Source of the DNA: a bacterium
Lineage (GTDB): Bacteria; Verrucomicrobiota; Kiritimatiellia; CAIKKV01; CAIYGI01
Assembly: GCA_037137675.1 (NCBI GenBank)
Contig: JBAXJV010000001.1
Location: 1 to 30,475, forward strand
Direction of reading: 5' to 3'
DNA: 30,475 nt
The notes below the pieces were generated by a model that saw only the letters and a program-made list of their open reading frames with translations, was not told the origin of the DNA and did no database searches. Shown here piece by piece: positions 3,501 through 25,373 of this stretch. The translations under genes were made by a program, and so were the position numbers. The stretch's first letter is position 1; each line of letters starts with the position of its first letter.

Positions 3501-5056
3501 CGCACCACGACATTTATTCGATCGAGGACCTGGCGCAATTAATTCACGACCTGAAGAACGCCAACCCCGATGCGCGCATCAGCGTCAAGCTTGTCTCCGA
3601 AGCGGGCGTCGGCACGGTGGCGGCCGGCGTGGCCAAAGGCAAGGCCGACCTGATTTTGATCAGCGGATGGGATGGCGGCACAGGCGCATCGCCGATGACG
3701 GCGGTGAAACACGCGGGATTGCCGTGGGAGCTGGGTCTGGCAGAGGCGCACCAGACGTTGCTGATCAACAAGTTGCGCAGCCGGGTGCGGCTGGAGTGTG
3801 ACGGCAAGCTCATGTGCGGCCGCGACGTGGCGGTTGCCTGTCTGCTGGGCGCGGAGGAATTTGGTTTTGCAACAGCGCCGCTCGTGGCGCTGGGCTGCGT
3901 TATGATGCGCGTCTGCCACCTTAATACCTGTCCACAGGGCATTGCCACCCAAAACCCGCGCCTTAGCAGGAAGTTCAATGGCAAGCCCGAGTACGTGGTG
4001 AATTTCATGCGTTTCATCGCCGAGGATTTCCGCCGCGTAATGGCGGAGATGGGATTCCGGACGGTTGACGAGATGGTGGGCCGCACGGATCTTATTGAAA
4101 TGCAGGACGCCTTGACGCACTGGAAGTCCAGAGGGCTGAATTACTCCTCCATTCTGTGCAACGTGCCGTCCAAACCGTCGGAGCGCCGCTGCACGCAGCA
4201 GCAGGACCACGGGATCAGCGATACGCTGGACCGGACGCTGATCAAGCTGTCCGAGCCGGCGCTGGAGGGTGGGCAGCCGGTGAAGCTGACGGTGGACATC
4301 CGTAACGTCAACCGGACAATCGGCACGATGTTGAGCAGTGTCATCTCCAAAAAATACGGGGCGGAGGGGCTGCCGGAGGACACGATTCAGATTACCTGCA
4401 AAGGCTCGTGCGGGCAGAGCTTCGGAGCATTTTGCGCGCGCGGCTTGACGCTCGCGGTTGAGGGGGATGCGAACGATTATTTTGGAAAGGGCCTGTCCGG
4501 CGGCAAGCTGATTCTTTATCCGCCGCCGAATGCGTCTTATGCGGCAGGGGAGAACATAATTGCCGGCAATGTGGCGCTGTATGGAGCGACGCAGGGCGAG
4601 GCGTATATCAGTGGCCTGGCAGGCGAACGGTTCTGCGTGCGCAATAGCGGGGTGACAGCGGTGGTTGAAGGGGTGGGGGACCACGGGTGTGAATATATGA
4701 CCGGCGGGCGCGTGGTGGTGTTGGGCGCCACGGGCCGCAATTTCGCGGCGGGCATGAGTGGCGGCATCGCCTATGTGCTCGACGAGAGTGGTGTGTTTGC
4801 CGAAAAGCGGTGCAACCGCGAACTGGTTGACCTCGAGCATCTGATCGAGCATGACGAGATTGAAGCGCTGTTGAACCTGATCACCAGGCACCACGCCTAT
4901 ACTGGCAGCTTGGTGGCCAGGCGCGTGATCGGACAGTGGCATCAGCTGCGTTTGAAATTCGTCAAGGTCATGCCGCGCGACTATAAGCGCGCGTTGGCGC
5001 GTCTGCAACGCGAAGAGCTGGAGCCGGTTGCAGAGACGGGAGGATTGCATGGGTAA
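506..5056 (+). CDS. gltB: Glutamate synthase large subunit
   Basis: 1516 aa with the propeptide then CGVG N-terminal nucleophile, HQRYSTNTFP, HNGEINT, MEPWDGPA, the FMN-domain motifs GEGGE and QIKMAQGAKPGEGGQLP, the 3Fe-4S motif CVMMRVCHLNTCPQG, and C-terminal GXGXG repeats. Confidence 0.98.
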   Translation: MKPAVFTGQYPKPQGLYDPSFEKDACGVGMVCSLKGEKSHDIVAKALQVLANLEHRGATGSDPETGDGAGILIQVPHAFFKSVVKDLPDAGLYGVGMVFLPQNAGSRAMCEQVLEKQLKAEGLSVLAWRDVPVQAEAIGELGRSSMPFIRQVFAACCNTPREHLDRQLFIARKLAENEVRQGTLEGREQFYLSSLSSKLIVYKGLMRSFRVAEFYAELRSPLVVSALALVHQRYSTNTFPAWSLAQPFRFISHNGEINTLRGNTNWFKARQGLFASELLGTGLERLFPVLTEGASDSAILDNAIELLYHAGRSLPHAVMMLIPEAWHHHTEMSSEKKSFYEYHACLMEPWDGPASIPFTDGQVIGAVLDRNGLRPSRYTVTRDGLVILGSETGVLEIDPSNVVRKGRLQPGRMFLVDMQQGRIIDDDEIKAQLSNRKPYGEWLKANLMSLDALPAADGDARLSLTDHALAARQRLFGYSVEDLKITLAPMGRSGIEPTGSMGNDAPLAVLSNRPRLLFDYFHQLFAQVTNPPLDAIREELVTSLLSYIGKQGNLLHETPGLCHLLRVNQPLITEAELLTIQTTEGSLIRSLTLPILFAANGKNQSLKAALDTLCAGAEAAVARDKTFLILTDRGASPEQAAIPSLLAVSAVHQHLLRRHLRAHVALIVDTGEPREVHHFATLLGFGVDVICPYMAYASLRNLCVRKLYIEDPPEVACANYIKAVNKGILKVMSKLGISTLQSYRGAQNFEIVGLNSDVTGQYFTGTVSRIEGIGLEQIAEGALRSHAACFKATVAGTPELPAGGLYQWRRDGEAHLYNPATIALLQQAVQKDDSALFKQYCERISGEQAEMFTLRGLFKLKQAAQPVPLEEVEPWTSIVKRFKTGAMSYGSISRQAHETLAIAMNRIGGSSNSGEGGEAAERFRPDPQGNWRISMIKQVASGRFGVTSHYLVNARELQIKMAQGAKPGEGGQLPAEKVYPWIAETRMSTPYVQLISPPPHHDIYSIEDLAQLIHDLKNANPDARISVKLVSEAGVGTVAAGVAKGKADLILISGWDGGTGASPMTAVKHAGLPWELGLAEAHQTLLINKLRSRVRLECDGKLMCGRDVAVACLLGAEEFGFATAPLVALGCVMMRVCHLNTCPQGIATQNPRLSRKFNGKPEYVVNFMRFIAEDFRRVMAEMGFRTVDEMVGRTDLIEMQDALTHWKSRGLNYSSILCNVPSKPSERRCTQQQDHGISDTLDRTLIKLSEPALEGGQPVKLTVDIRNVNRTIGTMLSSVISKKYGAEGLPEDTIQITCKGSCGQSFGAFCARGLTLAVEGDANDYFGKGLSGGKLILYPPPNASYAAGENIIAGNVALYGATQGEAYISGLAGERFCVRNSGVTAVVEGVGDHGCEYMTGGRVVVLGATGRNFAAGMSGGIAYVLDESGVFAEKRCNRELVDLEHLIEHDEIEALLNLITRHHAYTGSLVARRVIGQWHQLRLKFVKVMPRDYKRALARLQREELEPVAETGGLHG

Positions 5057-6518
5057 AATCACAGGCTTCATGGAGTATCAGCGCGAAACTGCTGAGCAGC
5101 GCCCGGTTGAGGAGCGGCTCCACGACTTCAAGGAAGTCTACCGCCCGGTGGATGAGCAGAAGCTTACGCATCAGGCCTCACGCTGTATGGATTGCGGTGT
5201 GCCGTTCTGCCACAGCGCATGCCCGTTGGGCAATCTTTGTCCCGAGTGGAACGATCTGGTCTATCAAGGGCAGTGGCAGAAGGCCTGGGAGCGTCTTTCA
5301 GGAACCAACAATTTCCCTGAATTCACCGGCAGGCTTTGTCCGGCGCTGTGCGAAGAGTCGTGCGTGCTGGGCATTCATGAGGGGCCGATGGCCGTCCAGT
5401 TTGTAGAAAAAACGATCATCGAATACGCGTTCGCGCACGGTCTCGTCAAGCCGGAGCCGCCGGCGCAGCGCACAGGCAAGCGCGTGGCGGTGGTCGGGTC
5501 GGGTCCCGCCGGGCTGGCCGTGGCGCAGCAGCTCAATCGCGCGGGGCATACGGTAACCGTCTTTGAAAAGAACGAGAAGGCCGGCGGCCTTTTGCGGTAT
5601 GGCATTCCGGATTTCAAGCTGGAGAAGTGGGTGATTGACCGCCGCCTGGAGATTATGGCGGACGAAGGCGTGAAGTTTGTCACGAACACTGATCCCACGC
5701 TCGAGATGCTGAAGGAGTTTGATGCGGTGGTGCTGACGAACGGCGCCGGACGTCCGCGCGATCTGCCGATTCCGGGCCGGGAATTGGGCGGCATTCACTT
5801 CGCATTGGAGTATCTCACACAGCAGAACCGCCTGCTGGTTGCGAACCCGGACGGCACTCAAGAGTGGGGCAAGATTAACGCCAGGGGCAAGAGCGTGATT
5901 GTGATTGGCGGCGGCGACACCGGGAGCGACTGTTTGGGTACGGCGCTGCGCCAGGGCGCGGCGGCAGTTCACAGTTTTGAGCTGATGCCAATGCCGCCCG
6001 AGCTGCGCACCGAAGATCAGCCCTGGCCGTTCTGGCCTATGAAGCTGCGCACCAGTTCCTCGCACAAAGAGGGCGGCGACCGCTTCTGGAGCATCCTTAC
6101 AAAAGAGTTTAAGGGTTACAACGGGCGTGTGCGGTCGCTGGTCACGGTCAACGTGGAGTGGACCAGGCCGGCGAAGAAGTCCGAGCGTCCGCAGTTGATT
6201 GAAAACCCGAATACGCAACAGGAGTGGCATGCCGATCTCGTGATGTTGGCGCTGGGCTTTTTGGGGCCGGAAACGGACGGCGTGCTCGCGCGTCTGGGCG
6301 TGGCTGTTGATGAGCGCAGTAACATCAAGACGGGCAAGGATTATCAGACCAATATTTCCGGCGTATTCGCGGCGGGCGATTCACGACGCGGTCAGTCGCT
6401 GATCGTATGGGCGATTTCCGAAGGACGGGAGTGTGCGGCCGCTGTGGACACGTGGCTGATGGGGTCGAGCACCCTGCCCAAATGGGCGGGAATGGATTTG
6501 TCGGCGATCAAAAAGTGA
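5049..6518 (+). CDS. gltD: Glutamate synthase small subunit
   Basis: Start ATG 5049 (MGKITGF) follows GGAGGA (5039-5044) and overlaps gltB by 8 nt. Motifs: CMDCGVPFCHSACP, CPALCEESC, GSGPAG, GGGDTGSDC, AAGDSRRGQSLIVWAI. Confidence 0.97.
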   Translation: MGKITGFMEYQRETAEQRPVEERLHDFKEVYRPVDEQKLTHQASRCMDCGVPFCHSACPLGNLCPEWNDLVYQGQWQKAWERLSGTNNFPEFTGRLCPALCEESCVLGIHEGPMAVQFVEKTIIEYAFAHGLVKPEPPAQRTGKRVAVVGSGPAGLAVAQQLNRAGHTVTVFEKNEKAGGLLRYGIPDFKLEKWVIDRRLEIMADEGVKFVTNTDPTLEMLKEFDAVVLTNGAGRPRDLPIPGRELGGIHFALEYLTQQNRLLVANPDGTQEWGKINARGKSVIVIGGGDTGSDCLGTALRQGAAAVHSFELMPMPPELRTEDQPWPFWPMKLRTSSSHKEGGDRFWSILTKEFKGYNGRVRSLVTVNVEWTRPAKKSERPQLIENPNTQQEWHADLVMLALGFLGPETDGVLARLGVAVDERSNIKTGKDYQTNISGVFAAGDSRRGQSLIVWAISEGRECAAAVDTWLMGSSTLPKWAGMDLSAIKK

Positions 6519-6557
6519 TGCTAGGCTTCCGGCGCCTGACCGCCAGGCCACGCTGGC

Positions 6558-7400
6558 CTACCGGCGGAGCGAACAACCCGCGGGCGTCAGGGCCAGCTGA
6601 CGGTAGGCGGCGGGGTTGACGCCCGAAAACTTGCGGAAGCACCGGCAGAAGACGCGGTAGCAGCCGAATCCGGATTGACTGGCCACGCAGGCTATGGTCA
6701 AGCAGGGCGCTTCCATGAGTAGCCGCCGCGCTTCCGCGACCCGCCGCTGTAGAATGTACTGCTTGATGCTCATGCCGGTGATGCGCTTGAAAAGATGGGC
6801 CAGATAGTAAGCCGAGTAGCCCGCTTGCGTTGCGAGTGCCGGCAGCGACATTTCGCGGCGAAAGTTTTTTTCAATATGTTCAATCAGCCAGTTCACTATG
6901 GGGTTGTGCCGGGGCTCCGGCCGTTTGTTGCGGGCAGCGCGCTTGATTAATGCGATCAGGCATGACAGCGTTGCGGCAATACACTCCCTGCGATAGTGGT
7001 TCTGATGATCGTGCTCGGTGAGCAGCAGGCGCAGAGCCATTTCGATTTCCGCAGCCGTGGCTTCGTCCAGTTCCAGAAAGTGCGGCAGGCCCGGGGGCAG
7101 CTTGAAGGTCTGCTTGCCCTGGCGCACCATGGACGCACGGAACATCAGCAGCCACTTTTCGAGCGGTTTTGTCGGGTCCGGCTCAAAACGATGCGGCGTG
7201 TTGGGTGGAACAACCAGCATGGCGTTGCTCCTGAATGCATGCCGGTGCCCGCCAATCAGGTAGTGACCCTGCCCCCTTTTAATCAGCTGAATCTCAATAT
7301 GAGGGTGGACGGCGAGGCTGGTGTCGCAAGGCTTGCTGGCGCGCGTCCAGCGCACGCTGAACGGCAAGTTGATGGTTTCGGTCTCGTGTTTGGCTGGCAT
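6558..7400 (-). CDS. AraC/XylS family transcriptional regulator (cupin sensor plus double HTH)
   Basis: N-terminal cupin (HPHIEIQLIKRGQG...PPNTPHRF) and C-terminal SLPALATQAGYSAYYLAHLFKRITG...IACVASQSGF...FCRCFRKFSGVNPAAYR. Confidence 0.93.
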   Translation of the reverse strand: MPAKHETETINLPFSVRWTRASKPCDTSLAVHPHIEIQLIKRGQGHYLIGGHRHAFRSNAMLVVPPNTPHRFEPDPTKPLEKWLLMFRASMVRQGKQTFKLPPGLPHFLELDEATAAEIEMALRLLLTEHDHQNHYRRECIAATLSCLIALIKRAARNKRPEPRHNPIVNWLIEHIEKNFRREMSLPALATQAGYSAYYLAHLFKRITGMSIKQYILQRRVAEARRLLMEAPCLTIACVASQSGFGCYRVFCRCFRKFSGVNPAAYRQLALTPAGCSLRR

Positions 7401-7426
7401 GGAGCGGCTTTGCTATGCGTCTTCCC

Positions 7427-7456
7427 AGTCTAGCGCGCAAGCCGCCTGCAGCGCAA
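7427..7456 (-). promoter_or_regulatory. Candidate sigma70 promoter of the AraC gene
   Basis: Minus strand: TTGCGC (7456-7451), 18-bp spacer, TAGACT (7432-7427). Confidence 0.45.
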
Positions 7457-7516
7457 GATGTGTCACATGTATGACAAGAATTCGGGCTGCGCCGATTACA
7501 TGCGAAATGATATAAA
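7454..7516 (+). promoter_or_regulatory. Candidate regulated promoter of the enzyme cluster: operator-like repeats plus extended -10
   Basis: CAAGA direct repeats at 7454-7458 and 7475-7479 (21-bp period), a TGTCA-N6-TGACA inverted repeat at 7461-7476, and TG-a-TATAAA at 7508-7516 with no good -35. Confidence 0.5.
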
Positions 7517-7523
7517 ACGCCCT

Positions 7524-8888
7524 GTGACAACACAACACTCCCTGATGTTCGGCAGCGCCACGCGCGACATCACCCCGGCGTACCCGGTTTGGCTGCACGG
7601 TTATAGCGCGCGCGATCGCATGTCCGATGGCGTGCGGGAGCCGGTTACACTCAGCTGTCTGGCGGTCAGCAACGGGGATTTGCGAGTTTTGGTCGTGGCC
7701 TGCGATCTGATCGGCATCGAGTCGTGGATGTGCGACGATTTGGCCGGACTTCTCGAACGGGAGGTCGGGATCGGCTATCCGCAGGTTATCTTTGCGTGTT
7801 CGCACACGCACTTTGCTCCAGCCTTGCACTGGGAGCCGCTGGATTCGCCGTGCGTGAACGGCGCGGAGCCCGATCCGCGCTTTATCGCCGCCTTCAAGAT
7901 TGCGCTCGTGGAAGCGGCGCGCGCCAGCCTGCAATCGCTGCAGGCCGGGCGGCTGCAAACTTTGCGTTTACCCGCTCCGCAAGTTCTGTTCAATCGCCGC
8001 ACGGTTTGCACCGCCGACGGGCTGGTGACCACGAACTTCCTCTATCCGGAAGAGCCTGCAGCCTGGACTTTCTCGCCTGTCGACGATCAGTTGACGGTTT
8101 TGCGCGTGGTCGGTGAAGCCGGTGTTCTGGCGATGCTCGTCAATTTCGGGTGCCACCCCGTGACCGGCGGGCCGGATCGCGAGCGCGATACTTACCGCAT
8201 CTCCTCCGAATACCCGCACTACCTGCGCCAGACGATCGCAGAAAAGTTTGCCTGTCCGGTTTTGTTCACCCTGGGCGCCGCAGGCGACGCGGTGCCACTT
8301 AAGCGTAACGAGGAATGCCGCCAGCGGATTGGCAGCATTCTTGGCAACACCGCGATTCTCGGGGAACGGGCTTATCAGACGGACGTCAGCCCGGACCTGC
8401 AAGTGGCGTCGGTGACAATTGAAGGCGAACTGGCGCTCCGGACGGACCGCGCTGCGGCAGAACGGAACTACGCTGCTGCGCGCGATACGGCGCGCCGGAT
8501 TGCGGAGGCCCCTGCGGCAGATCACGGCAGCCCGGATTACCGCGCCGCCATGGAGCGTTTCCAGCATGCGGCCATGACCCTGCATCGGGCGCGTATTTAT
8601 CCGGATGGCAAGCAAGCCATCCGCCTGCAATTCTTGCGGATTGGCACGACGACGATTGTGGCCTGGCCGTTTGAAGTGTTGGCCGGGATCGGGCTGCGCA
8701 TCAAGCAGCGCTTCCCGGATGTCGTAATGATCTCCTGTGCCGGGGGCTATCAGGGTTACATCCCGCTTGCGGCGGACCACCCGCGCGGCGGGTATGAAGC
8801 CAGCGGGGCGGCGGTCCATTTCGTGCCGGGCACCGGTGACCGCCTGCTGGAGGCCACGCTGCGCTGGCTGGAGCAGAACGCCGTTTGA
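7524..8888 (+). CDS. Neutral/alkaline-ceramidase-like putative metal-dependent amidohydrolase of unknown substrate
   Basis: Family motifs recognised by eye: GSATRDITP, VACDLIG, CSHTHFAP, NFGCHP, SSEYP, GAAGD, GYIP, GGYE. No signal peptide. The start is uncertain: GTG 7524 is preferred, ATG 7500 and 7545 are in frame, and the ORF track begins at 7458. Confidence 0.7.
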   Translation: MTTQHSLMFGSATRDITPAYPVWLHGYSARDRMSDGVREPVTLSCLAVSNGDLRVLVVACDLIGIESWMCDDLAGLLEREVGIGYPQVIFACSHTHFAPALHWEPLDSPCVNGAEPDPRFIAAFKIALVEAARASLQSLQAGRLQTLRLPAPQVLFNRRTVCTADGLVTTNFLYPEEPAAWTFSPVDDQLTVLRVVGEAGVLAMLVNFGCHPVTGGPDRERDTYRISSEYPHYLRQTIAEKFACPVLFTLGAAGDAVPLKRNEECRQRIGSILGNTAILGERAYQTDVSPDLQVASVTIEGELALRTDRAAAERNYAAARDTARRIAEAPAADHGSPDYRAAMERFQHAAMTLHRARIYPDGKQAIRLQFLRIGTTTIVAWPFEVLAGIGLRIKQRFPDVVMISCAGGYQGYIPLAADHPRGGYEASGAAVHFVPGTGDRLLEATLRWLEQNAV

Positions 8889-8939
8889 GATTTTGAACAA
8901 AGACACAACCTAAACCTGCAGAAAAGGCGAGCATTAATC

Positions 8940-10307
8940 ATGCAAACAAATCAGGGAACGCTGGCGATTCTAAACGGGACGAAAGCGGTGCAGACCGATG
9001 TTGGAGATATGTTCGACTGGCCGATCATCACCCGTGAGGATGAAGAGGCTGTGCTGGATGTCCTGCACCGTCGCGCCATGTCCGGCTCTGATGTGACGCA
9101 AAAGTTCGAGCAGGAGTTCGCCGCCTGGCAAGGCACCCGCTACGCGCTGGGCTTCAACAACGGGACGGCGGCGCTGCATGCCGCAATGTATGGCTGCGGG
9201 GTCGGCGTGGGCGACGAAATCATCGCTCCGAGCCTGACCTACTGGGCCACCTGTCTCTCAGTTTTCTCGCTAGGCGGCAGCGTGGTTTTTGCGGATGTCG
9301 AACCGGACACGCTGTGCATTGATCCGCGGGATATCGAGCGCCGCATCAGCGCACGCACCAAGGCGATCGTGGTGGTGCATTATCTCGGGCATCCTGCAGA
9401 CATGGATCCGATCATGGAGATTGCCCGCAAACACAAAGTGAAGGTCATCGAAGACCTCTCACACGCCCATGGCGGACTGTACAAGGGGCGTAAGCTGGGC
9501 ACGATCGGCGATCTGACGGCCATGTCCATGATGACCGGCAAGGCCCTTGTGAGCGGCGAAGGCGGCGTGCTGGCCACGGACAACCGGGAGCTTTACGAAA
9601 AAGCGCTGACGTTTGGCCACTACGAGCGCTATGACGGAAGCCTTCAGACGCAAGCCCTGCTGCCATACGCGCACCTGCCAGCCGGTGGCTACAAGTACAG
9701 AATGCACCAGATGAGCTCCGCCGTCGCGCGGGTGCAGCTGAAGCACTACGACCAGCGCTGCGCCGAAATCCAGAAGTCCATGAACTACTTCTGGGACTTG
9801 CTGGAAGGCGTGCCGGGCCTTAAAGCGCACCGTCCGGCCAAGGGTAGCGGCAGCACCATGGGCGGCTGGTACGCAGCCCACGGAATCTACCGTCCGGAGC
9901 AATTGGGAGGCTTGTCCGTGACCCGCTTCTGCCAGGCCGTAAGCGCCGAGGGCGTCGGCGCCGGCATCAGTCCCGGTTGTAATCTGCCGCTGCACCTGCA
10001 CGGGTTGTTAAACAGCTGCGATGTCTATGGCCACGGGAAGCCGACGCGCATTGCGAATTCTGATCGCGATCTCCGGCAGCCGGCCGGCAGTCTGCCGGTA
10101 ACCGAACACGCCGGCGCGCTGACTTACGGCGTGCCATGGTTCAAGCATTATCGTCCGGCGATCATCGAAGAATATGCCTCCGCATTTCGCAAGGTGGCGG
10201 AACAGCATGCCCTGCTGCTGAAAGACGGTCCGGGTAATGCTCCGAAGCTGGGCGGCTGGCATTTTTTCAGCCGGCGCTGGGCGCGAGGGAAGGGGATGAT
10301 GAGATGA
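8940..10307 (+). CDS. DegT/DnrJ/EryC1/StrS family PLP-dependent aminotransferase
   Basis: NNGTAALHAA, GVGDEIIAPSLTY, VVVHYLG, PLP-binding EDLSHAHG, catalytic-Lys region SMMTGKALVSGEGG, and GYKYRM. Confidence 0.92.
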   Translation: MQTNQGTLAILNGTKAVQTDVGDMFDWPIITREDEEAVLDVLHRRAMSGSDVTQKFEQEFAAWQGTRYALGFNNGTAALHAAMYGCGVGVGDEIIAPSLTYWATCLSVFSLGGSVVFADVEPDTLCIDPRDIERRISARTKAIVVVHYLGHPADMDPIMEIARKHKVKVIEDLSHAHGGLYKGRKLGTIGDLTAMSMMTGKALVSGEGGVLATDNRELYEKALTFGHYERYDGSLQTQALLPYAHLPAGGYKYRMHQMSSAVARVQLKHYDQRCAEIQKSMNYFWDLLEGVPGLKAHRPAKGSGSTMGGWYAAHGIYRPEQLGGLSVTRFCQAVSAEGVGAGISPGCNLPLHLHGLLNSCDVYGHGKPTRIANSDRDLRQPAGSLPVTEHAGALTYGVPWFKHYRPAIIEEYASAFRKVAEQHALLLKDGPGNAPKLGGWHFFSRRWARGKGMMR

Positions 10308-11464
10308 ATAGCGTGCGCATGGGAATCATCGGGCTGGGTAATATCGGCCTGCACCACGCCGGGTATCTGCGGCAGGGTCAGGTCGAGGGTGCCACTCTGG
10401 CGGCGATTTCGGATGTGCGGCCAGATCATGCCAGGCGTTGGGTTGAGGAGAGTGGCGCAACGGTGGAGGTCTTCGATACGGCTGAGGCGCTGATCAATTC
10501 CGGAACCTGTGACGCCGTGATCATCGCCACCCCGTCCCCGCTGCATCCACCACTGGCGATCCGCGCCTTTGCACAGGGGCTTCACGTCCTCGTGGAGAAG
10601 CCGGCCGGCACTTGCGCCGGGGATGTGCGCGCCATGAATGCCGCCGCCGTGCAAAGCGGAAAAGTTTTTGGAATCCAGTTTGCCCAGCGGATGATGCCAG
10701 CTTATCAGAAGGCCCGGGAGCTGATCGCAGCGGGCGCGTTAGGCGAGCTGCAGCGCACGCAATGGACCAGCACTAAATGGTACCGTACGCAGGACTATTA
10801 CGACTCCGGTGGCTGGCGCGGCACCTGGAGCGGCGAAGGCGGCGGAGTGCTCGTCAACCAGAGCCCTCACGATCTCGATATCTGGATCTGGCTCTGCGGC
10901 CTGCCGGTGCGGGTGCGGGCTTTCTGCCGCTTCGGCCAGTGGCACGCCATCGAGGTTGAGGATGATGTCACCGCTTACGTCGAGTATTCCAACGGCGCCT
11001 CCGGCGTCTTCATCTGTTCGACCGGCGAGTTTCCCGGCACGAACCGCCTTGAGATAGTCGGCGATCTGGGCACGCTTACCGTTCAGGATGGTTGTCAGCT
11101 TGAGTTCCGCCGCTTGAACGGATCGGCGCGGAAGCATTGCCGGGAGGCCAAGGGCTTTAGTTTTCCAGAGGCTTCAAACGTAGAGGTCGTTCTGGCAGAG
11201 CAAACGTCCGATAACATTGACAACACGCGTAACTTCGTGAATGCGGTTCTGCACGGGGCGGCCCTGGTCGCGCCGGGAGTGGAAGGGTTGAACAGCATCG
11301 AACTCTCGAACGCCATGCAGCTCTCAACCTGGCTCGGCGAGGCGATTGAACTGCCAACCGATGCGCTCCGCTACCGGGCTGCCCTGGAAGAGAAAATCCG
11401 CTCTTCGCAGGTGCGCAAGCCGGACGTGGTGAGAACCCTCGATGTCGCCGCCTCGTGGCGCTGA
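10304..11464 (+). CDS. Gfo/Idh/MocA family NAD(P)-dependent oxidoreductase
   Basis: Rossmann motif GIIGLGNIG, VEKP, and WYRTQDYY...WRGTWSGEGGGVLVNQSPHDLD. ATGA overlap with the aminotransferase stop codon. Confidence 0.93.
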   Translation: MNSVRMGIIGLGNIGLHHAGYLRQGQVEGATLAAISDVRPDHARRWVEESGATVEVFDTAEALINSGTCDAVIIATPSPLHPPLAIRAFAQGLHVLVEKPAGTCAGDVRAMNAAAVQSGKVFGIQFAQRMMPAYQKARELIAAGALGELQRTQWTSTKWYRTQDYYDSGGWRGTWSGEGGGVLVNQSPHDLDIWIWLCGLPVRVRAFCRFGQWHAIEVEDDVTAYVEYSNGASGVFICSTGEFPGTNRLEIVGDLGTLTVQDGCQLEFRRLNGSARKHCREAKGFSFPEASNVEVVLAEQTSDNIDNTRNFVNAVLHGAALVAPGVEGLNSIELSNAMQLSTWLGEAIELPTDALRYRAALEEKIRSSQVRKPDVVRTLDVAASWR

Positions 11465-11503
11465 CAGCAGCGCGGACTGAGCAGCGCCGGGCGATCTTCG
11501 TGT

Positions 11504-11532
11504 TTGCCATTTCGGTCCGGTTCTGGCACCGT
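11504..11532 (+). promoter_or_regulatory. Weak candidate promoter, potentially leaderless, for the isomerase gene
   Basis: TTGCCA (11504-11509), 17-bp spacer, CACCGT (11527-11532) preceded by TG. The ATG at 11540 is 7 nt downstream with no SD. The -10 match is only partial. Confidence 0.3.
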
Positions 11533-11539
11533 CTTGCGC

Positions 11540-12382
11540 ATGATCAAGGCAATCAGTTACTGGAGTATGCAGGGCGGGCTGGATGGCGCATGCCCGGTTG
11601 AAGCAGCCATGACCGCCGCCCGTGCCGCAGGCTTCGGCGGCATCGAGCTTTGCATTGCGGAAAAGGGCGTGCTGACGCCCTCCACCAATCAAGCGGAGTG
11701 CCGCGCCTACGCCGCGCTGGCGGCCAGGCATGGGCTGGCCATGGAAACGCTGGCCAGCGGCATGAGCTGGGGCTGTTCCCCCACTCACCCCGATGTCGCG
11801 GTGCGCCGCAAGTCCATCGCGTTGCACCGTGACGCGCTGCAACGCGCTGCGTGGCTGGGCTGCAGGGCCATGCTTTTTGTTCCGGGCGCCGTAATCATAC
11901 CCTGGGACTCCTCGTATGCGCCGGTCCGTTACGATCAGGCCGTGGCCTGGGCGCGCGAGGCGGTGGCTGAGCTTGGCGACACTGCGGCGCGCGTCGGTGT
12001 TGATCTGGCCGTCGAGAACGTCTGGAACGGGCTGTTCTATTCGCCGCTGGAGCTGGCCGGGTTCGTGGATTCGTTCGGTAATCCCCGCGTCGGAGTCTAC
12101 TTTGATGTCGGCAATATGCTGAATCACCAACAGTGGCCGCCGCACTGGATTGAAATTCTCGGAGCTCGCATCCGGGCAATCCATATCAAGGACTTCAAGC
12201 TGGCTAACGGCACGCTGTCGGGATTCTGCGATCTGCTGACCGGCGACATTCCCTTCAAGCCTGTCATGGCGGCGTTGCGGGCGCTGAATTATCAAAGCAC
12301 GCTGGTGGCGGAGATGATGCCTTATGATCCGGGCTTGCTGGAACGTACCAGCCGGGCCATGGACCAAATTCTGGCGATGTAA
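11540..12382 (+). CDS. Sugar phosphate isomerase/epimerase (xylose-isomerase-like TIM barrel)
   Basis: GFGGIEL plus metal-ligand motifs AVENVWN, YFDVGN, IHIKDF and AEM. ATG 11540 is preferred over TTG 11504. Confidence 0.88.
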   Translation: MIKAISYWSMQGGLDGACPVEAAMTAARAAGFGGIELCIAEKGVLTPSTNQAECRAYAALAARHGLAMETLASGMSWGCSPTHPDVAVRRKSIALHRDALQRAAWLGCRAMLFVPGAVIIPWDSSYAPVRYDQAVAWAREAVAELGDTAARVGVDLAVENVWNGLFYSPLELAGFVDSFGNPRVGVYFDVGNMLNHQQWPPHWIEILGARIRAIHIKDFKLANGTLSGFCDLLTGDIPFKPVMAALRALNYQSTLVAEMMPYDPGLLERTSRAMDQILAM

Positions 12383-12397
12383 CGGAAATGGCAGGGC

Positions 12398-12426
12398 TTG
12401 GCGGAAGTCATGGTTGAAGATAAGTT
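12398..12426 (+). promoter_or_regulatory. Candidate internal promoter for the second oxidoreductase
   Basis: TTGGCG (12398-12403), 17-bp spacer, TAAGTT (12421-12426), ending 10 nt before ATG 12437. Confidence 0.4.
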
Positions 12427-12436
12427 AAGGAAACAC

Positions 12437-13444
12437 ATGTTAAAAGTCGGCGTAATTGGAATTGGCATGATGGGGTCTACGCATTTGGACGCCTATGCCA
12501 AGGTTAAGGGAGTCAGGGTGGCAGCGGTGGCAGACCTTATCGAGGACCGCCGCGAGGGGCGGACGCTGACCGCTGGAAACGTTCAAGGCCAGTCGCAGGG
12601 CGGCGTGGATTTCTCACAGTTCCGCAAATATGACGAGGGCCTGCGCCTGATTGCGGACCCCGGTCTGGACGTGGTGGACATCTGCCTTCCGACACCGCTG
12701 CACGCACGCTACGCGATCGCCGCGCTCAAGGCAGGCAAGCACGTCCTGACCGAAAAGCCTTTTGCTTCCAACAGCCGTCAGGCCGCGCAGCTGGTCGCGG
12801 TGGCCAGTCATGCCAGGCCCATGCTGATGTGCGCGATGTGCATGCGCTTCTGGCCGGCCTGGGCGTGGCTGAAAAATACGGTGGACAGGAAAACCTACGG
12901 CAAGACGCTGTCGGCGCAGTTCCGGCGCGTGGCCAGTCATCCCGGCGGGCCGTTTTACAGCAATGGCCGGGCCTGCGGCGGCGCGGTTCTTGATCTGCAT
13001 ATTCACGACACGGATTTTATAAACTACTGTTTTGGAAAACCGGATGCGGTTTTTACACGCGGGTACATCAGGAATACCGGGCGGTTCGACCATCTGGTGA
13101 CAAACTACCTTTATAAAAATGTTCCGCTGGTAGTGGCCGAAGGCGGCTGGACGATGGCCCCGGGCTTCGGTTTTCAAATGCAGTATACCGTCAACTTCGA
13201 ACGGGCAACCGCGGTTTTCGATCTGGCGGCTCAGGATCAGCTGACGCTTTTCGCCGGCGGCCGGCGGAGCGTGGTGAAGGTGAAGCCGGGCATGGGCTAT
13301 CAGCACGAAATCGCCTATTTCGTGGATTGCATCCGCAAGCGAGTGCGTCCGCAAATGGTGGACCCGGCGAGCGCGGCGCTGTCGGTGACAATTGTGGAAG
13401 CCGAAGTTAAAAGCGCCCGCAGCGGAAAGCCGGTGCGGGTCTGA
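12437..13444 (+). CDS. Gfo/Idh/MocA family oxidoreductase
   Basis: GVIGIGMMG, DVVDICLPTPLH, TEKP, and GGAVLDLHIHDTD. AAGGA precedes ATG 12437. Confidence 0.92.
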   Translation: MLKVGVIGIGMMGSTHLDAYAKVKGVRVAAVADLIEDRREGRTLTAGNVQGQSQGGVDFSQFRKYDEGLRLIADPGLDVVDICLPTPLHARYAIAALKAGKHVLTEKPFASNSRQAAQLVAVASHARPMLMCAMCMRFWPAWAWLKNTVDRKTYGKTLSAQFRRVASHPGGPFYSNGRACGGAVLDLHIHDTDFINYCFGKPDAVFTRGYIRNTGRFDHLVTNYLYKNVPLVVAEGGWTMAPGFGFQMQYTVNFERATAVFDLAAQDQLTLFAGGRRSVVKVKPGMGYQHEIAYFVDCIRKRVRPQMVDPASAALSVTIVEAEVKSARSGKPVRV

Positions 13445-13573
13445 CGGATCGCTGAAGCAGTCCGTGGCGAACGGCAATTATAAATGCCGTTGCCGGCGAT
13501 GCGGTTGCGGTGGCGCCTGCCGCAGTCCTGCCCGGCGGAGTTTGCATGGCGGATAAAGCGCGGGAGAAAATTC

Positions 13574-14653
13574 ATGATTAGCGTTTCACGGGTGGAGCAG
13601 GTTATCGGGCTGTCGGTTTTGACCCTGATTGTGCTGGGCTGTCTGATTGTGATGCGGCCCTTTATATCAGCCGTGTTATGGGCTGGCATCATTTGCTACG
13701 CGACCTGGCCGCTGCACGAACGCGTGCTGAAGGCGATGCACGGCCGGCGCACGCTCGCGGCAGGGATTACGACGATGCTGGTTGTGGTCTGCATGCTGCT
13801 GCCATTTGTCATCGCAGGGCTTAGTTTCGCAGACGACTTCCGTCTGGTCGTACACTACGTGGCGGATTTGCATAAGAACGGCCTGCCGCCGGCGCCGGAT
13901 TGGGTGGCGCAGGTGCCGCTGGTGGGCGTGTCGGCGCATGTGGCGTGGGACGATTGGGTGCAACAGGCGCAAGGCTCGGTCCAGGCCCTTGTCCCGTTTT
14001 ACAGCAAGATGAGGGGCTGGGCGTTCCGCCGCAGTCTGGATATTGGCGAAGGCGTGTTTCAGCTCACCATGAGCGTTATTATCGTCTTTTTCTTGTACCG
14101 CGACGGAGTCCGTCTGGTGGACCGGTTACGCGCGGCCGTGCAGCGGATTGCCGGAGACCGTGCCCAGCATCTCGTGGGCGTTGCGGGCAATACGATCAAG
14201 GCGGTGGTCTACGGGCTGCTCGGCACGGCTTTGGCGCAGGGCGTGGTGGCAGCGATCGGGTTTACGGTGGCAGGCGTGCCGATGCCCTTTTTGCTGGGGC
14301 TGCTGACTTTCTTCCTCTCGCTGATTCCCATGGGCCCGCCGCTGGTATGGATCGGTGCCACTGTCTGGTTGCTCACCCAGGACCATCTTGGCATGGCCAT
14401 CTTTATGGGGATTTATGGCTTGATCGGAATCAGCGGGGTGGACAATCTGATCCGTCCGCTGCTGATCAGCCGCGGCACTAATATGCCGTTCGTGTTGACG
14501 CTGCTTGGCGTGATGGGTGGCATCTGGGCGTTTGGCTTCATCGGAGTTTTTATTGGCCCCACGCTGCTGGCCGTTGGCTATGCGCTGATCGCGGACTTTA
14601 TCAGCAGCGCGCGACCGGGTGTGCCGGAAGCAGTTGCTGCGCAGCCGACATGA
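13574..14653 (+). CDS. AI-2E family transporter (YdiK-like)
   Basis: Multiple hydrophobic helices, SLIPMGPPLVW, VDNLIRPLLI, and GFIGVFIGP. GGAG precedes ATG 13574. Confidence 0.9.
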   Translation: MISVSRVEQVIGLSVLTLIVLGCLIVMRPFISAVLWAGIICYATWPLHERVLKAMHGRRTLAAGITTMLVVVCMLLPFVIAGLSFADDFRLVVHYVADLHKNGLPPAPDWVAQVPLVGVSAHVAWDDWVQQAQGSVQALVPFYSKMRGWAFRRSLDIGEGVFQLTMSVIIVFFLYRDGVRLVDRLRAAVQRIAGDRAQHLVGVAGNTIKAVVYGLLGTALAQGVVAAIGFTVAGVPMPFLLGLLTFFLSLIPMGPPLVWIGATVWLLTQDHLGMAIFMGIYGLIGISGVDNLIRPLLISRGTNMPFVLTLLGVMGGIWAFGFIGVFIGPTLLAVGYALIADFISSARPGVPEAVAAQPT

Positions 14654-15975
14654 ATGCAGCGCTCGATGATACGCTGAGAAGGCTGTATGCGTTACGCCGT
14701 TTCGGATTACGGCCGGGGCTGGAATCCGTGCAGGCGCTGCTGGAACGGCTGGGCCACCCCGAGCGCGCTTGTGCTGTCATCCACATCGCCGGCACCAACG
14801 GCAAGGGCTCGGTGGCTGCGATGCTCGACGCGGTGCTGCGCGCGGCAGGGTTGCGCGTGGGGCTCTACACCTCGCCGCATCTGGTGCGCTTCAATGAGCG
14901 TATCCGTGTGAATGGCGTGGCGATTACGGACGACGCGCTGGCGTCGCTTTTCGCCGGCTTGGAGCCGCATCTGGCGGCGCTGGCGGGAACGCCGGGGCGC
15001 GAGGCGACTTTTTTTGAGGTCACAACAGCGCTGGCATTCCAACACTTTGCCGACGCCGGCGTGCGCCTGGTGGTAATGGAAACAGGGCTTGGCGGACGGC
15101 TTGACGCCACCAACGTGGCTGCTCCGCTGGCCTCTGTGATCACACGGATCGGTCTTGATCACATGCAATACCTGGGGGCGACGCTGGAAGAGATTGCAGG
15201 CGAGAAGGCCGGCATCATCAAGGCTGGCCGCCCGGTGGTGCTGGGCGCCATGCCGGCGGCAGCGCGGGCGGTCGTGGCGGCGGCGGCGCAGCGCGCCGGT
15301 GCGCGGCTGGTCGAGGCCTCCGCTGTTGTCACGGTGCGGCGCGTGTCCGAGACGTGGGCAGGGCAGAAGGTCTCGCTGGCGTCTCTGGAACAGGAATACG
15401 GAACTGTGACTGTGCCGCTGCTGGGGCGGCACCAGTTGGAGAACCTGGCGACGGTGCTGACGACGCTCGAAACGCTGGCGGTGGAGGGATTGCCGGCGGT
15501 GGCGCCAGCGGTGCTGCGCAAAGGGTTGGCTGCGGTACGCTGGCCGGGCCGCATGCAGGTGCTGGAGACCGCCCCGCCGACGATTCTGGACGGCGCGCAC
15601 AATCCCGATGCCGCGCATGCGCTGAGTGTGGCGCTGCACGATTTATTGAAAGGACGGCCGGTGGCGCTGCTGTTCGGTATGTGCGAGGACAAGGACGCCG
15701 CGGGGTTCCTGCGAGCGCTCGATCTGCCTGTGCGGAAGGTCTGGACAGTGCCGCTCTCGCACCCGCGCGGCCAGACCCCCGGAGCGCTGGCGGCGCTGGT
15801 CCGGGCGCGCGGCTGGCCGGTCGATGCGGCTCAGGCTCTGCCTGACGCGCTGGCGGCGGCGCGAGTTTGGGCGGCGGCAGAAGGCGCTGCGGTGGTGATC
15901 TGCGGATCGTTGTTTCTAGCGGGCGATGTCCTGGCTTTACGGGAAGGAAGCGGCCATGTCGAACAAACAAATTGA
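14650..15975 (+). CDS. folC: Bifunctional folylpolyglutamate synthase / dihydrofolate synthase
   Basis: HIAGTNGKGS, YTSPHL..FNERI, TFFEVTT, METGLGGRLDATN, EKAGIIK, WPGRMQ, and LDGAHNP. ATGA overlap with the transporter gene. Confidence 0.95.
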   Translation: MNAALDDTLRRLYALRRFGLRPGLESVQALLERLGHPERACAVIHIAGTNGKGSVAAMLDAVLRAAGLRVGLYTSPHLVRFNERIRVNGVAITDDALASLFAGLEPHLAALAGTPGREATFFEVTTALAFQHFADAGVRLVVMETGLGGRLDATNVAAPLASVITRIGLDHMQYLGATLEEIAGEKAGIIKAGRPVVLGAMPAAARAVVAAAAQRAGARLVEASAVVTVRRVSETWAGQKVSLASLEQEYGTVTVPLLGRHQLENLATVLTTLETLAVEGLPAVAPAVLRKGLAAVRWPGRMQVLETAPPTILDGAHNPDAAHALSVALHDLLKGRPVALLFGMCEDKDAAGFLRALDLPVRKVWTVPLSHPRGQTPGALAALVRARGWPVDAAQALPDALAAARVWAAAEGAAVVICGSLFLAGDVLALREGSGHVEQTN

Positions 15976-16414
15976 AGTCCTGGTCCGCGGCGTGCTGGTA
16001 CGGCGGGGGCGCATATTGGTGTGTCAGGGGCGGGGGGCGGATAATGTTTTTCTTCCCGGCGGGCATGTTGAGTTCGGCGAAGCCGCCGCGACGGCGCTGG
16101 CGCGGGAGTGGCGGGAAGAACTTGGCGTGAGCGCCAAAGTCGGGCGTTTTTTGGGAGCGGTGGAGCACACCTACCGGCAGAAAAGCCGGGCCCATTGCGA
16201 GGTTAATTTCGTTTTTGTGGTGACTTGTCCAGCCTTGTCGTCAGCCGCCGATCCCGAGTCCGAGGAGGATTGGATCAGGTTCCGCTGGATTTCACTCGCG
16301 GCGCTCTCAAGTTCGCATCTGGAGCCAGCGCCTCTTTGCCGGCAATTACCACGCTGGCTGGCAACGGCGCATAGCGGCTTGGATTGCTGGGCCAGCACGC
16401 TGCCAGCAACCTGA
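15956..16414 (+). CDS. NUDIX hydrolase
   Basis: Complete Nudix box GHVEFGE-AAATALA-REWREELGV. Start ATG 15956 overlaps the end of folC by 20 nt. Confidence 0.9.
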   Translation: MSNKQIEVLVRGVLVRRGRILVCQGRGADNVFLPGGHVEFGEAAATALAREWREELGVSAKVGRFLGAVEHTYRQKSRAHCEVNFVFVVTCPALSSAADPESEEDWIRFRWISLAALSSSHLEPAPLCRQLPRWLATAHSGLDCWASTLPAT

Positions 16415-16449
16415 AAGACTTTACTGCAGCAGCCTTTCTCAATATTCAC

Positions 16450-16479
16450 TTGTCGAGCACTGCGGATATGAACTAGGCT
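16450..16479 (+). promoter_or_regulatory. Candidate promoter for serC-purB
   Basis: TTGTCG (16450-16455), 18-bp spacer, TAGGCT (16474-16479), followed by an SD GGAGG at 16497-16501. Confidence 0.4.
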
Positions 16480-16507
16480 GCGGATGCCTAACAACGGGAG
16501 GTTCAGT

Positions 16508-17587
16508 ATGTCGAGAGTATTCAATTTTGGAGCTGGTCCAGCGGGGTTGCCGGTCGAGGTTTTGGAAGAGGCGCGCGATCAAATGCTGGACTTTCAAGGC
16601 AGCGGCATGTCCATCATGGAGCATAGCCACCGCGGCAAGGAATATGATGCGGTCCATCAGGAGGCCGTCGCTAACGTGAAGTCCCTGCTGCAGCTTGACG
16701 CTGATCACGAGGTGCTTTTTCTGCAAGGCGGTGCCAGCCTGCAATTTGCCATGCTGCCTATGAACCTGCTCGGAGCGGGTCAGACGGCCGACTACATCCA
16801 TACCGGAGCCTGGTCCGGAAAGGCCGTTAAGGAGGCCAAGCTCATCGGCAAGGTGCATCTGGCGGCCGATGTCAGCAAGGCCAGCCCTGCCCGCATCCCC
16901 ACGCCCGGCGAACTCGTACTGACCCCGGGCGCAGCGTATGTTCACATGACGACCAACGAGACCATTGACGGCACAGAGTGGTGGGACTTCCCCCGTACTG
17001 AGGCGCCGCTGGTGGCCGATATGTCTTCGGATATTCTCTCCCGCCCCTTCGATGCCAACCAGTTTGGATTAATCTACGCCGGAGCGCAGAAAAACCTTGG
17101 TCCGTCGGGCCTCTGCATGGTCGTAATCCGCAAGGACCTGGCCGCGCGGTCACCGGCAACGCTTTCCAGCATGCTGCGTTACGCAACGCACCTGGAGGAA
17201 AACTCCCTCTATAACACGCCGCCAACCTTCGGCATCTATATTCTCATGCTCGTCACCCGCTGGATCAAAGCCATGGGCGCCGCGAATCTGTACCGTCAAA
17301 ACCGCGAAAAGGCCGCAAAACTTTACGCTGCCATTGATGGCAGTGGCGGATTCTATCGCGGCACCGCCGCTCCGGAGTGCCGCAGCAATATGAACGTCAC
17401 CTTTCGGCTGCCGGGCGAAGCGCTGGAGGAGCAGTTCGTCAAGGAAGCTTCCAAACAGGCCATGAAGGGTCTCAAAGGCCATCGCGCAGTCGGTGGTATA
17501 AGGGCCTCGATTTACAACGCCTTCCCGCTGGCCGGAATAGATGCGCTGGCGGCATTCATGCGGGACTTTCAACGCAAGAACGGATGA
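16508..17587 (+). CDS. serC: Phosphoserine aminotransferase
   Basis: FNFGAGPA, IMEHSHR, FLQGGASLQF, DMSSDILS, PLP Lys in GAQKNLGP, NTPPTF, and GHRAVGGIRASIYNA. Confidence 0.96.
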   Translation: MSRVFNFGAGPAGLPVEVLEEARDQMLDFQGSGMSIMEHSHRGKEYDAVHQEAVANVKSLLQLDADHEVLFLQGGASLQFAMLPMNLLGAGQTADYIHTGAWSGKAVKEAKLIGKVHLAADVSKASPARIPTPGELVLTPGAAYVHMTTNETIDGTEWWDFPRTEAPLVADMSSDILSRPFDANQFGLIYAGAQKNLGPSGLCMVVIRKDLAARSPATLSSMLRYATHLEENSLYNTPPTFGIYILMLVTRWIKAMGAANLYRQNREKAAKLYAAIDGSGGFYRGTAAPECRSNMNVTFRLPGEALEEQFVKEASKQAMKGLKGHRAVGGIRASIYNAFPLAGIDALAAFMRDFQRKNG

Positions 17588-25341: not shown

Positions 25342-25373
25342 TATCTCTTCTCCTGATCCTGGTTGCTCATCAT

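Follow-up and report, generated by a model that had tools for sequence, protein, structure and literature searches.

The described system nearest to the gene cluster reported here is the P2B11 cluster with the AL/BT 3-keto glycoside pathway, wherein two oxidoreductases and "isomerases" of the triose-phosphate isomerase (TIM) barrel type carry out oxidation, elimination, and hydration (Nasseri et al., bioRxiv 10.1101/2024.03.25.586180; PDB 8TDI). Our cluster lies at positions 6558 to 13444 of a 30,475-nucleotide (nt) stretch of DNA from a freshwater Kiritimatiellia bacterium (GenBank contig JBAXJV010000001.1, positions 1 to 30,475), hereafter called the window. It comprises the gene for an AraC-family regulator and five enzyme genes. 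We estimate an even chance that it is an AraC-controlled, cytoplasmic operon for the catabolism (salvage) of an N-acylated amino sugar, amino-uronic acid, or aminocyclitol by way of a keto intermediate. Its substrate is probably released from complex glycans. The components are as follows.

6558-7400, minus strand: regulator of the AraC family whose N-terminal part is a ligand-binding cupin domain (Pfam HTH_18, HTH_AraC, and AraC_binding)
7401-7523: divergent control region between the AraC and hydrolase genes, ~123 nt long with GTG 7524 as the hydrolase start
7458-8888, plus strand: ceramidase-like, a short-form metallohydrolase with the neutral-ceramidase fold (catalytic domain only) and proposed N-deacylase (PF04734, profile, and fold)
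8940-10307, plus strand: DegT, a long-form DegT/DnrJ/EryC1/StrS pyridoxal phosphate (PLP) aminotransferase of ~445 amino acids (aa) (PF01041)
10304-11464, plus strand: GFO1, a Gfo/Idh/MocA oxidoreductase resembling glycoside/uronide 3-dehydrogenases (nearest solved relative 8TDI)
11504-12382, plus strand: TIM, a xylose-isomerase-like TIM barrel nearest to keto-sugar 3-epimerases (AP_endonuc_2)
12398-13444, plus strand: GFO2, a second Gfo/Idh/MocA oxidoreductase and proposed keto-sugar reductase (Pfam)

In the proposed pathway, the zinc hydrolase with the ceramidase fold would take off the N-acyl group, and the long-form DegT enzyme would pass the freed amine to a 2-oxo acid to leave a keto sugar. 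The TIM barrel could then epimerize or isomerize the sugar next to the carbonyl, or else eliminate or hydrate, and a Gfo/Idh/MocA enzyme would finally turn the carbonyl into a hydroxyl. GFO1 might alternatively oxidize C3 of the same or a neighboring sugar. We infer the direction of the pathway, its substrate, the order of the steps, and whether the amine sits at C2 or C3. In favor of the proposal are the tight gaps of the operon, the divergent AraC gene with a cupin ligand domain, and the catalytic residues kept in the DegT, ceramidase-like, TIM, and GFO1 proteins.

Comparison with described systems

The P2B11 and AL/BT systems share with the window two Gfo/Idh/MocA enzymes and one or more xylose-isomerase-like TIM barrels, encoded in a cytoplasmic-type cluster that lacks DUF1080, and a chemistry centered on a keto-sugar intermediate, which for the window is putative. 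GFO1 is closest to a glucuronide 3-dehydrogenase, and therefore the two GFO proteins and the TIM barrel resemble a described catabolic architecture. The P2B11/AL/BT cluster is without an aminotransferase and an amide hydrolase, whereas the window has both. In addition, the window encodes one TIM barrel where the P2B11 cluster has two, and UlaE and ketose 3-epimerases are closer relatives of this protein than is the solved hydratase AtHYD.

Pairs of DegT and Gfo/Idh/MocA enzymes are classically biosynthetic, and the coupling of DegT to GFO1 resembles the cofactor cycle of WbpB/WbpE. An alternative is that GFO1 oxidizes a hydroxyl and DegT aminates the resulting ketone (in a WbpB/WbpE-, GnnA/GnnB-, or IolG/MosB-like manner), wherein TIM and GFO2 adjust stereochemistry. 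The resulting amino sugar or aminocyclitol would be destined for the envelope or serve as a solute or secondary metabolite. We consider this biosynthetic alternative distinctly unlikely. The WbpB/WbpE/WbpD route (WlbA/WlbC/WlbB; GnnA/GnnB) likewise pairs a Gfo/Idh/MocA 3-dehydrogenase with a DegT enzyme that acts on the same carbon, but it is a biosynthetic route on uridine diphosphate (UDP) sugars, leading to UDP-2,3-diacetamido-2,3-dideoxy-glucuronic acid, and an N-acetyltransferase follows. The window holds no nucleotide-sugar gene, and its amide hydrolase stands where the acyltransferase would be expected. By analogy, an amide hydrolase in the N-acetyltransferase position is what would be expected of the reverse of this route, for which WbpB/WbpE/WbpD would be the biosynthetic mirror image.

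Aminocyclitol enzymes offer a further comparison. BtrR/StsC-type aminotransferases, which act on 2-deoxy-scyllo-inosose or scyllo-inosose and go together with IolG-type dehydrogenases, include the BtrR-type enzymes that rank first among the solved relatives of DegT. IolG is matched weakly by both GFO proteins, and the fold of the window TIM barrel is common to IolE, IolI, and IolO. Unlike these systems, which serve biosynthetic pathways, the window is without an inositol transporter or other iol genes. A MosB/IolG system for rhizopine was reportedly described by Geddes et al. in 2019.

The logic of the NagA/NagB/NagK route (deacylate, remove the nitrogen, and enter central sugar metabolism) is like that proposed here, and ROK, PIG-L, and amidohydrolase genes appear in window-related loci in keeping with that logic. 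However, NagB catalyzes the isomerizing deamination of a sugar phosphate, whereas the window enzymes would use PLP transamination to form a keto sugar. The window also lacks a kinase, and its enzyme families all differ from those of NagA/NagB/NagK. A full-text literature search, whose coverage left out most subscription journals, found no pathway of this composition and no DegT-dependent catabolic route.

Organization of the gene cluster

As the initial annotation had described, the AraC gene is divergent from five co-oriented enzyme genes, and open reading frames (ORFs) and Pfam matches place all six accordingly. The predicted translational coupling of DegT to GFO1 by an ATGA overlap is likewise present, at positions 10304-10307. 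The gaps within the five-gene run are 51, -4, 39-78, and 15-54 nt, where the ranges reflect alternative starts. Comparison with homologues indicates that the likely true starts are GTG 7524 for the ceramidase-like gene (N-termini of homologues; the called protein has 454 aa), ATG 11543 for TIM, and ATG 12437 for GFO2. By eye reading of their N-termini, none of the enzymes has a signal peptide.

A second contig of the same organism (locus L084, 100% identity) holds the ceramidase-like, DegT, and GFO1 genes. Moreover, four freshwater or lake sequencing runs, each from a different outside study, yielded fragmentary contigs that span the gene junctions and account for 28-30 of 30 bins. Because these sources agree, the gene order is not an assembly artifact. 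Among the 23 runs listed, no RNA run contains the stretch.

Scans of positions 6400-16600 were uninformative, returning no sigma-70-like sites where 2.2 were expected and 10 terminator-like sites where 10.0 were expected. No sigma-70-like site was found in the control region at 7401-7523. The divergent region between AraC and the hydrolase contains an inverted repeat, TGTCA-N6-TGACA, at 7461-7476 that is a candidate operator.

The AraC protein matches HTH_18 (75.8 bits), HTH_AraC (48.7 bits), and the AraC_binding cupin (48.6 bits) in Pfam, corresponding to two helix-turn-helix units and a ligand domain, and it reaches no named NCBIfam equivalog. AraC genes at the orthologue level (94-166 bits) adjoin DegT orthologues in 4 of 20 loci examined in the phylum (L065, L067, L071, and L082).

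Characteristics of the five enzymes

The identities of the genes, the folds of their products, the conservation of catalytic residues, and the recurrence of modules are established by the analyses that follow. In its 454-aa form, the ceramidase-like protein carries PF04734 in the precomputed table of our collection, and its paralogues reach 46-59 bits with this model; no PF04734 match was present in 14 control genomes. A profile built from 35 homologues matches human neutral ceramidase (4wgk) with an E value of 3.5e-10. The AlphaFold2 (AF2) model of the protein (predicted local distance difference test score, pLDDT, of 92) is matched in Foldseek only by neutral ceramidases, with template modeling scores (TMq) of 0.69-0.72 and E values of ~1e-23. 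The individual values are TMq 0.72 and E 5.8e-24 for 4wgk and TMq 0.69 for 2zws, and the next fold has a TM score of <0.2. Residues H94, H96, H211, E384, Y409, and Y412 are invariant across the 35 homologues, and in the profile alignment the HTH and HPV sequences align with THTH and IHPV of 4wgk. We take these HxH, His, Glu, and Tyr columns to be the residues of the zinc site.

Neutral and alkaline ceramidases (ASAH2, 4wgk; the Pseudomonas aeruginosa enzyme, 2zws), with which the window protein shares the fold of the catalytic domain and the HxH/His motifs, are its only relatives of known function by structure and by sequence. This likeness raises the alternative that the protein cleaves ceramide or a fatty-acyl amide and that the other genes process the amino-alcohol head group. 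GH123 enzymes (GH, glycoside hydrolase) act on glycosphingolipids, and one ceramidase-like orthologue lies beside a GH123-like gene (L011). Nevertheless, we find metabolism of ceramide or N-acyl lipids very improbable. The window protein matches only the N-terminal domain of neutral ceramidases, lacks their C-terminal immunoglobulin-like domain (454 aa versus 630-688 aa), and is 14-16% identical to them. Furthermore, neutral ceramidases are secreted, whereas the window protein looks cytoplasmic by eye, with no signal peptide, and the partners of this family are sugar-type enzymes throughout. An N-deacylase role for the protein within the salvage operon is a proposal.

Among Spirochaetota, 9 of 201 genomes (including the center genome G437) match the ceramidase-like protein at E<=1e-15, and all of the frames span 440-500 aa. 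Fusions of ceramidase-like domains to AP_endonuc_2 (227 members) or to GlcNAc 2-epimerase (116 members) in the Atlas, which would also speak against a lipid substrate, were unconfirmed, and no fused form was present among proteins of >=796 aa.

DegT matches PF01041 at 251 bits against a cut-off of 19.8 and has a C-terminal extension beyond the Pfam model. The PLP lysine is kept, as Lys201 aligns with Lys192 of BtrR (2c7t), and Asp172 aligns with Asp163. Among solved proteins, those most similar to DegT are 2-deoxy-scyllo-inosose aminotransferases (2c7t and 5w71 at 172 bits, 7b0d at 155 bits), a result that favors the biosynthetic alternative, and WbpE matches at 109 bits. At the same time, none of the NCBIfam equivalogs PseC, ArnB, WecE, DesI, and RfbH is reached, the best being PseC with 184.5 bits versus a required 423.5. 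The long-form subfamily has at least 4384 proteins at E<=1e-60, and members from Anaerolineae, Armatimonadetes, Latescibacterota, and Firmicutes are ~70% identical. As far as alignments can tell, it is a distinct and large subfamily that lacks a characterized member.

Membership in the kanosamine group was considered and dropped, given that NtdA matches DegT at only 106 bits and that an NtdB-type phosphatase is lacking. PDB entry 8GYH also gives no clue to a sugar substrate, since it is Fic25, the aminotransferase of ficellomycin (PMC11726168). One locus (L069, 8956-11609, of genome G008) carries two tandem long-form DegT orthologues that overlap by 4 nt and are ~60% identical to that of the window.

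By far the nearest solved relative of GFO1 is the glucuronide-3-dehydrogenase of P2B11 (8TDI), whose match spans residues 1-367 and scores 264 bits (E 1.8e-77). The second best is WlbA (3q2i) at 113 bits, which is again a point in favor of biosynthesis. Relative to the published pocket of P2B11 Oxido1 (bioRxiv 10.1101/2024.03.25.586180), GFO1 keeps five of six residues (Trp, Arg, Tyr, Asn, and His), wherein an Asn that contacts nicotinamide adenine dinucleotide is replaced by Ala. The closest GFO1 relative found (L125, G330:C110, 2393-5616) is 69% identical over residues 1-192, where the compared stretch ends. It is preceded by a GFO gene and an enolase-superfamily (MR_MLE_C) gene, which hints at acid sugars.

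TIM matches AP_endonuc_2 at 138 bits in Pfam. A single-sequence search of the PDB gave no match at 1e-5, and a profile search yielded MJ1311 (93.6 bits), UlaE (83.1 bits), ketose 3-epimerases (61-71 bits), AtHYD (36.6 bits), and YcjR (23.2 bits). The AF2 model (pLDDT 97) matches UlaE with a TM score of 0.82-0.83 in Foldseek, and the metal-site columns E158, D188, H214, and E257 are invariant. The fold and these columns are the same as in the 3-keto-glycoside lyase/hydratase. By profile, TIM comes closer to UlaE and the ketose 3-epimerases (61-94 bits) than to AtHYD or YcjR.

For GFO2, the solved relatives are weak, and the protein scores 27 bits with the BT_2159 family against a cut-off of 650. 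The IolG model scores 111.9 and 101.7 bits on the two GFO proteins versus 355. In the window, the IolE model scores 22.3 bits versus 290, and the UDP-N-acetylglucosamine 3-dehydrogenase model 117 bits versus 450. Indeed, all NCBIfam biosynthetic equivalogs fall far under their cut-offs, which argues against biosynthesis. Genes of the URO-D-like family (PF01208) adjoin GFO genes in three places (L087, 12142-13332; L120, 1464-2468; and L006 on contig C96 of the source genome, 3023-4153).

Recurring sub-modules in other loci

Two sub-modules recur, the ceramidase-like gene with DegT (and in some cases GFO1) and TIM with GFO2, and in the window they are placed under one regulator. For the first of these, L087 carries a ceramidase-like gene (54% identity) and DegT (63%) followed by TIM and GFO genes; L030 carries DegT (50%), TIM, and ceramidase-like genes beside GH35; in L076 the ceramidase-like and DegT genes overlap; and on a Chloroflexota-type contig (L096-98) they are 3.7 kb apart. 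The second was examined in nine TIM loci, namely those from the 8 of 400 phylum genomes that have TIM orthologues (>=49% identity) and a 41%-identical locus of genome G204 (L137). A GFO2 gene at the orthologue level directly follows TIM in three of these (L131, L139, and L137), and in L131 the pair (TIM 61%, GFO2 64%) faces an AraC gene. DegT and TIM also occur together with GFO genes and GH116 in L120.

In L137, which belongs to a complete phylum genome, a PocR/AraC regulator faces genes for a GFO, two TIM barrels, Amidohydro_1/3, DegT (55%), and Amidohydro_2. Both sub-modules are thus present in this locus, which matches the window in its functions except that the place of the hydrolase is taken by another family of amide hydrolases. 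DegT orthologues are present in 46 of 400 phylum genomes, from which we took an unbiased sample of 20 loci. Within three genes of DegT, 6 of the 20 have a metal-hydrolase gene, which belongs to PF04909 (L074, L075, L079, and L082), PF04734 (L076), or M55 (L071).

The source genome itself contains paralogous loci. On C24, an AraC gene faces DegT and a ceramidase-like gene beside GH2 and a heparinase-like gene; on C124, an AraC gene faces DegT and TIM; C133 has DegT followed by two TIM genes; and C53 has a class-III aminotransferase, a ceramidase-like gene, a GFO, and an FGGY kinase.

Conservation of the five-gene set

A number of results weigh against the proposed salvage operon. Checked for co-occurrence in other genomes, the five-gene set proved not to be conserved at the orthologue level, in partial agreement with an outcome that the initial annotation had named as refuting its reading. 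The ceramidase-like orthologue is absent from all 40 relatives surveyed (2 from its own genus and 38 others from its order, with completeness of 68-97%, at E<=1e-30), and orthologues of GFO1, TIM, or GFO2 occur in 0 of the 20 DegT loci, about half of which have no hydrolase, TIM, or GFO neighbor at all. Several of the supporting loci (L087, L030, and L137) were found by way of a partner gene and are hence a biased sample. A characterized close relative exists for none of the five enzymes. The ceramidase-like protein scores 27.9 bits with PF04734, under the gathering cut-off of 32.1; the best full-length match to GFO1, from a family with genes in 167 of 400 phylum genomes, is 50% identical; and characterized members of PF04909 are mostly lactonases or decarboxylases, not amidases. 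The cluster also has no sugar importer or kinase. Finally, a glycosyltransferase family 2 (GT2), UDP-glucose dehydrogenase, or pyruvyl transferase gene lies near DegT in 3 of the 20 loci, and one locus, L121, looks biosynthetic, with a DegT orthologue, a GFO, myo-inositol-1-phosphate synthase, and a fusion of an AAC(3)-like N-acetyltransferase to a TIM barrel.

Judged from these sequence comparisons, the five-gene set is a mosaic of recurring, interchangeable modules and no discrete conserved pathway. Of the 27 loci in species-representative genomes that have a ceramidase-like relative, only L030 has an adjoining DegT at the orthologue level, and a ceramidase-like gene occurs in just one of the 20 DegT loci (L076). 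It is possible, if unlikely, that each gene belongs independently to a large, shuffled family of sugar-active enzymes and that the five genes form one operon but share no substrate or linear pathway, as is typical of glycan-degrading bacteria of the Planctomycetes-Verrucomicrobia-Chlamydiae (PVC) type. The many paralogues among the ORFs of the source genome (9 ceramidase-like, 9 DegT, and >20 GFO) are consistent with such shuffling, as are the differing contexts of the five orthologues elsewhere and the fact that the TIM protein of L087 is just 26% identical to that of the window. In contrast, the translational coupling and very short gaps, the appearance of the same family combination in at least five unrelated genomes and four paralogous loci, and the AraC-type regulator that repeatedly accompanies it all argue for a common function.

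Genomic contexts of related genes

The initial annotation had also noted the absence of nucleotidyltransferase and glycosyltransferase partners. This holds for the entire 30-kb window, where Pfam searches found no nucleotidyltransferase, glycosyltransferase, acetyltransferase, or nucleotide-sugar gene, and no nucleotide-sugar NCBIfam equivalog was reached. Near ceramidase-like orthologues are genes for heparinase II/III-like proteins, BNR_2, sulfatases resembling N-sulfoglucosamine sulfohydrolase (SGSH-type), GH123, GH38, fucosidases, and an SASA esterase, as well as PIG-L, ROK, and transporters of the ATP-binding cassette (ABC) and major facilitator superfamily (MFS) types. When the ceramidase-like, DegT, and TIM orthologues are taken together, the neighbors also include GH116, GH35, sugar ABC transporters, and LacI, GntR, and AraC regulators. 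These contexts point to the catabolism of glycans that bear amino sugars, and biosynthetic neighbors are rare among them. The catabolic direction claimed earlier is thus in keeping with the contexts of relatives and with the recurrent pairing of DegT with non-homologous amide hydrolases, whereas the idea of five genes as a conserved set does not stand.

The same observations bear on biosynthesis. L121 favors it by coupling a DegT orthologue and a GFO to an AAC(3)-like acetyltransferase and to myo-inositol-1-phosphate synthase, and DegT and GFO1 have the solved relatives noted above. Against it, the window offers no acetyltransferase, nucleotidyltransferase, glycosyltransferase, or exporter of the kind typical of such loci, its regulator is a divergent, ligand-binding AraC protein, and the relatives have genes for glycoside hydrolases, sulfatases, and sugar transporters as their neighbors.

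Two loci are of separate interest. At 9979-11547 of L121, on a Latescibacterota chromosome, one gene joins the AAC(3)-like aminoglycoside N-acetyltransferase domain to a TIM barrel of the xylose-isomerase-like kind, and this locus resembles a counterpart of the window cluster for aminocyclitol biosynthesis. In L134 (G192:C67, 3533-10422), a TIM orthologue (58%) shares one strand with genes for an MFS transporter, an SGSH-type sulfatase, a ROK kinase-like protein, and a ceramidase-like protein. It looks like a locus for the utilization of N-sulfo or N-acyl glucosamine-type compounds that has two families in common with the window.

Regarding the position of the amine in a salvage substrate, the likeness of GFO1 to P2B11 Oxido1 and WlbA suggests C3. 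The SGSH, PIG-L, ROK, and heparinase contexts, along with the likeness of TIM to ketose 3-epimerases, suggest C2 (as in glucosamine).

Implications of the proposed pathway

If the salvage reading is correct, the nitrogen of an amino sugar would be removed by PLP transamination, unlike in the textbook NagA/NagB route via sugar phosphates. The enzymes responsible would come from families so far known only in biosynthesis, in the case of DegT, or in lipid metabolism, in the case of the ceramidase fold. The hosts of these subfamilies are uncultured glycan degraders, including PVC-type bacteria, Latescibacterota, Chloroflexota, and Spirochaetota, and the question bears on the recycling of amino-sugar carbon and nitrogen from complex glycans in lakes and sediments. 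Amino-modified substrates would also be added to the recently discovered logic of 3-keto glycoside cleavage. The value would be smaller if the genes are a mosaic without a common substrate, amounting to a catalog of interchangeable modules.

A more specific version, which we regard as improbable, is that the cluster encodes an "amine-entry" form of glycoside cleavage by oxidation, elimination, and hydration. Deacylation would unmask the amine and DegT would convert it to the keto linchpin, after which cleavage of the glycosidic bond and recycling of the sugar would fall to the TIM barrel and the GFO enzymes. We considered this version because a 3-amino modification is reported to block the 3-keto pathway and is proposed there to have evolved to protect glycosylated natural products or aminoglycosides (bioRxiv 10.1101/2024.03.25.586180). 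Were it true, bacteria could degrade 3-amino (or 2-amino) glycosides, and the DegT subfamily would be a widespread, unrecognized class of catabolic sugar transaminase.

Other features of the window

The initial annotation had ended the five-gene run at 13444. All five genes are co-oriented as claimed, but the run continues past that position into an additional gene.

13484-14653, plus strand: AI-2E-family transporter (PF01594, 144 bits)

This gene starts 39 nt after GFO2 on the same strand, with no terminator-like site in the gap (13445-13483), and is translationally coupled to FolC by a 4-nt overlap (together 13484-15975). Its product scores 201 bits with the YdiK model, under the cut-off of 305, and no homologue was found in related loci. 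A transporter coupled to FolC is an unusual combination, and the operon may extend into this pair on its right-hand side.

Directly upstream of the AraC gene, at 506-6518, are the genes for the large (gltB, 1516 aa) and small (gltD, 496 aa) subunits of glutamate synthase, with a mutual overlap of 29 nt. That they lie close to a cluster with an aminotransferase may be coincidence. Farther away on the minus strand, a 291-aa protein (27713-28588) matches no Pfam or NCBIfam model, and a 1092-aa protein (22180-25458) has no NCBIfam match and resembles Glyco_hydro_42M only weakly, over one stretch (30 bits). A tandem pair of CNNM/CBS genes of the CorC/HlyC type, which overlap by ~100 nt as called, occupies positions 25374-27619 of the same strand.

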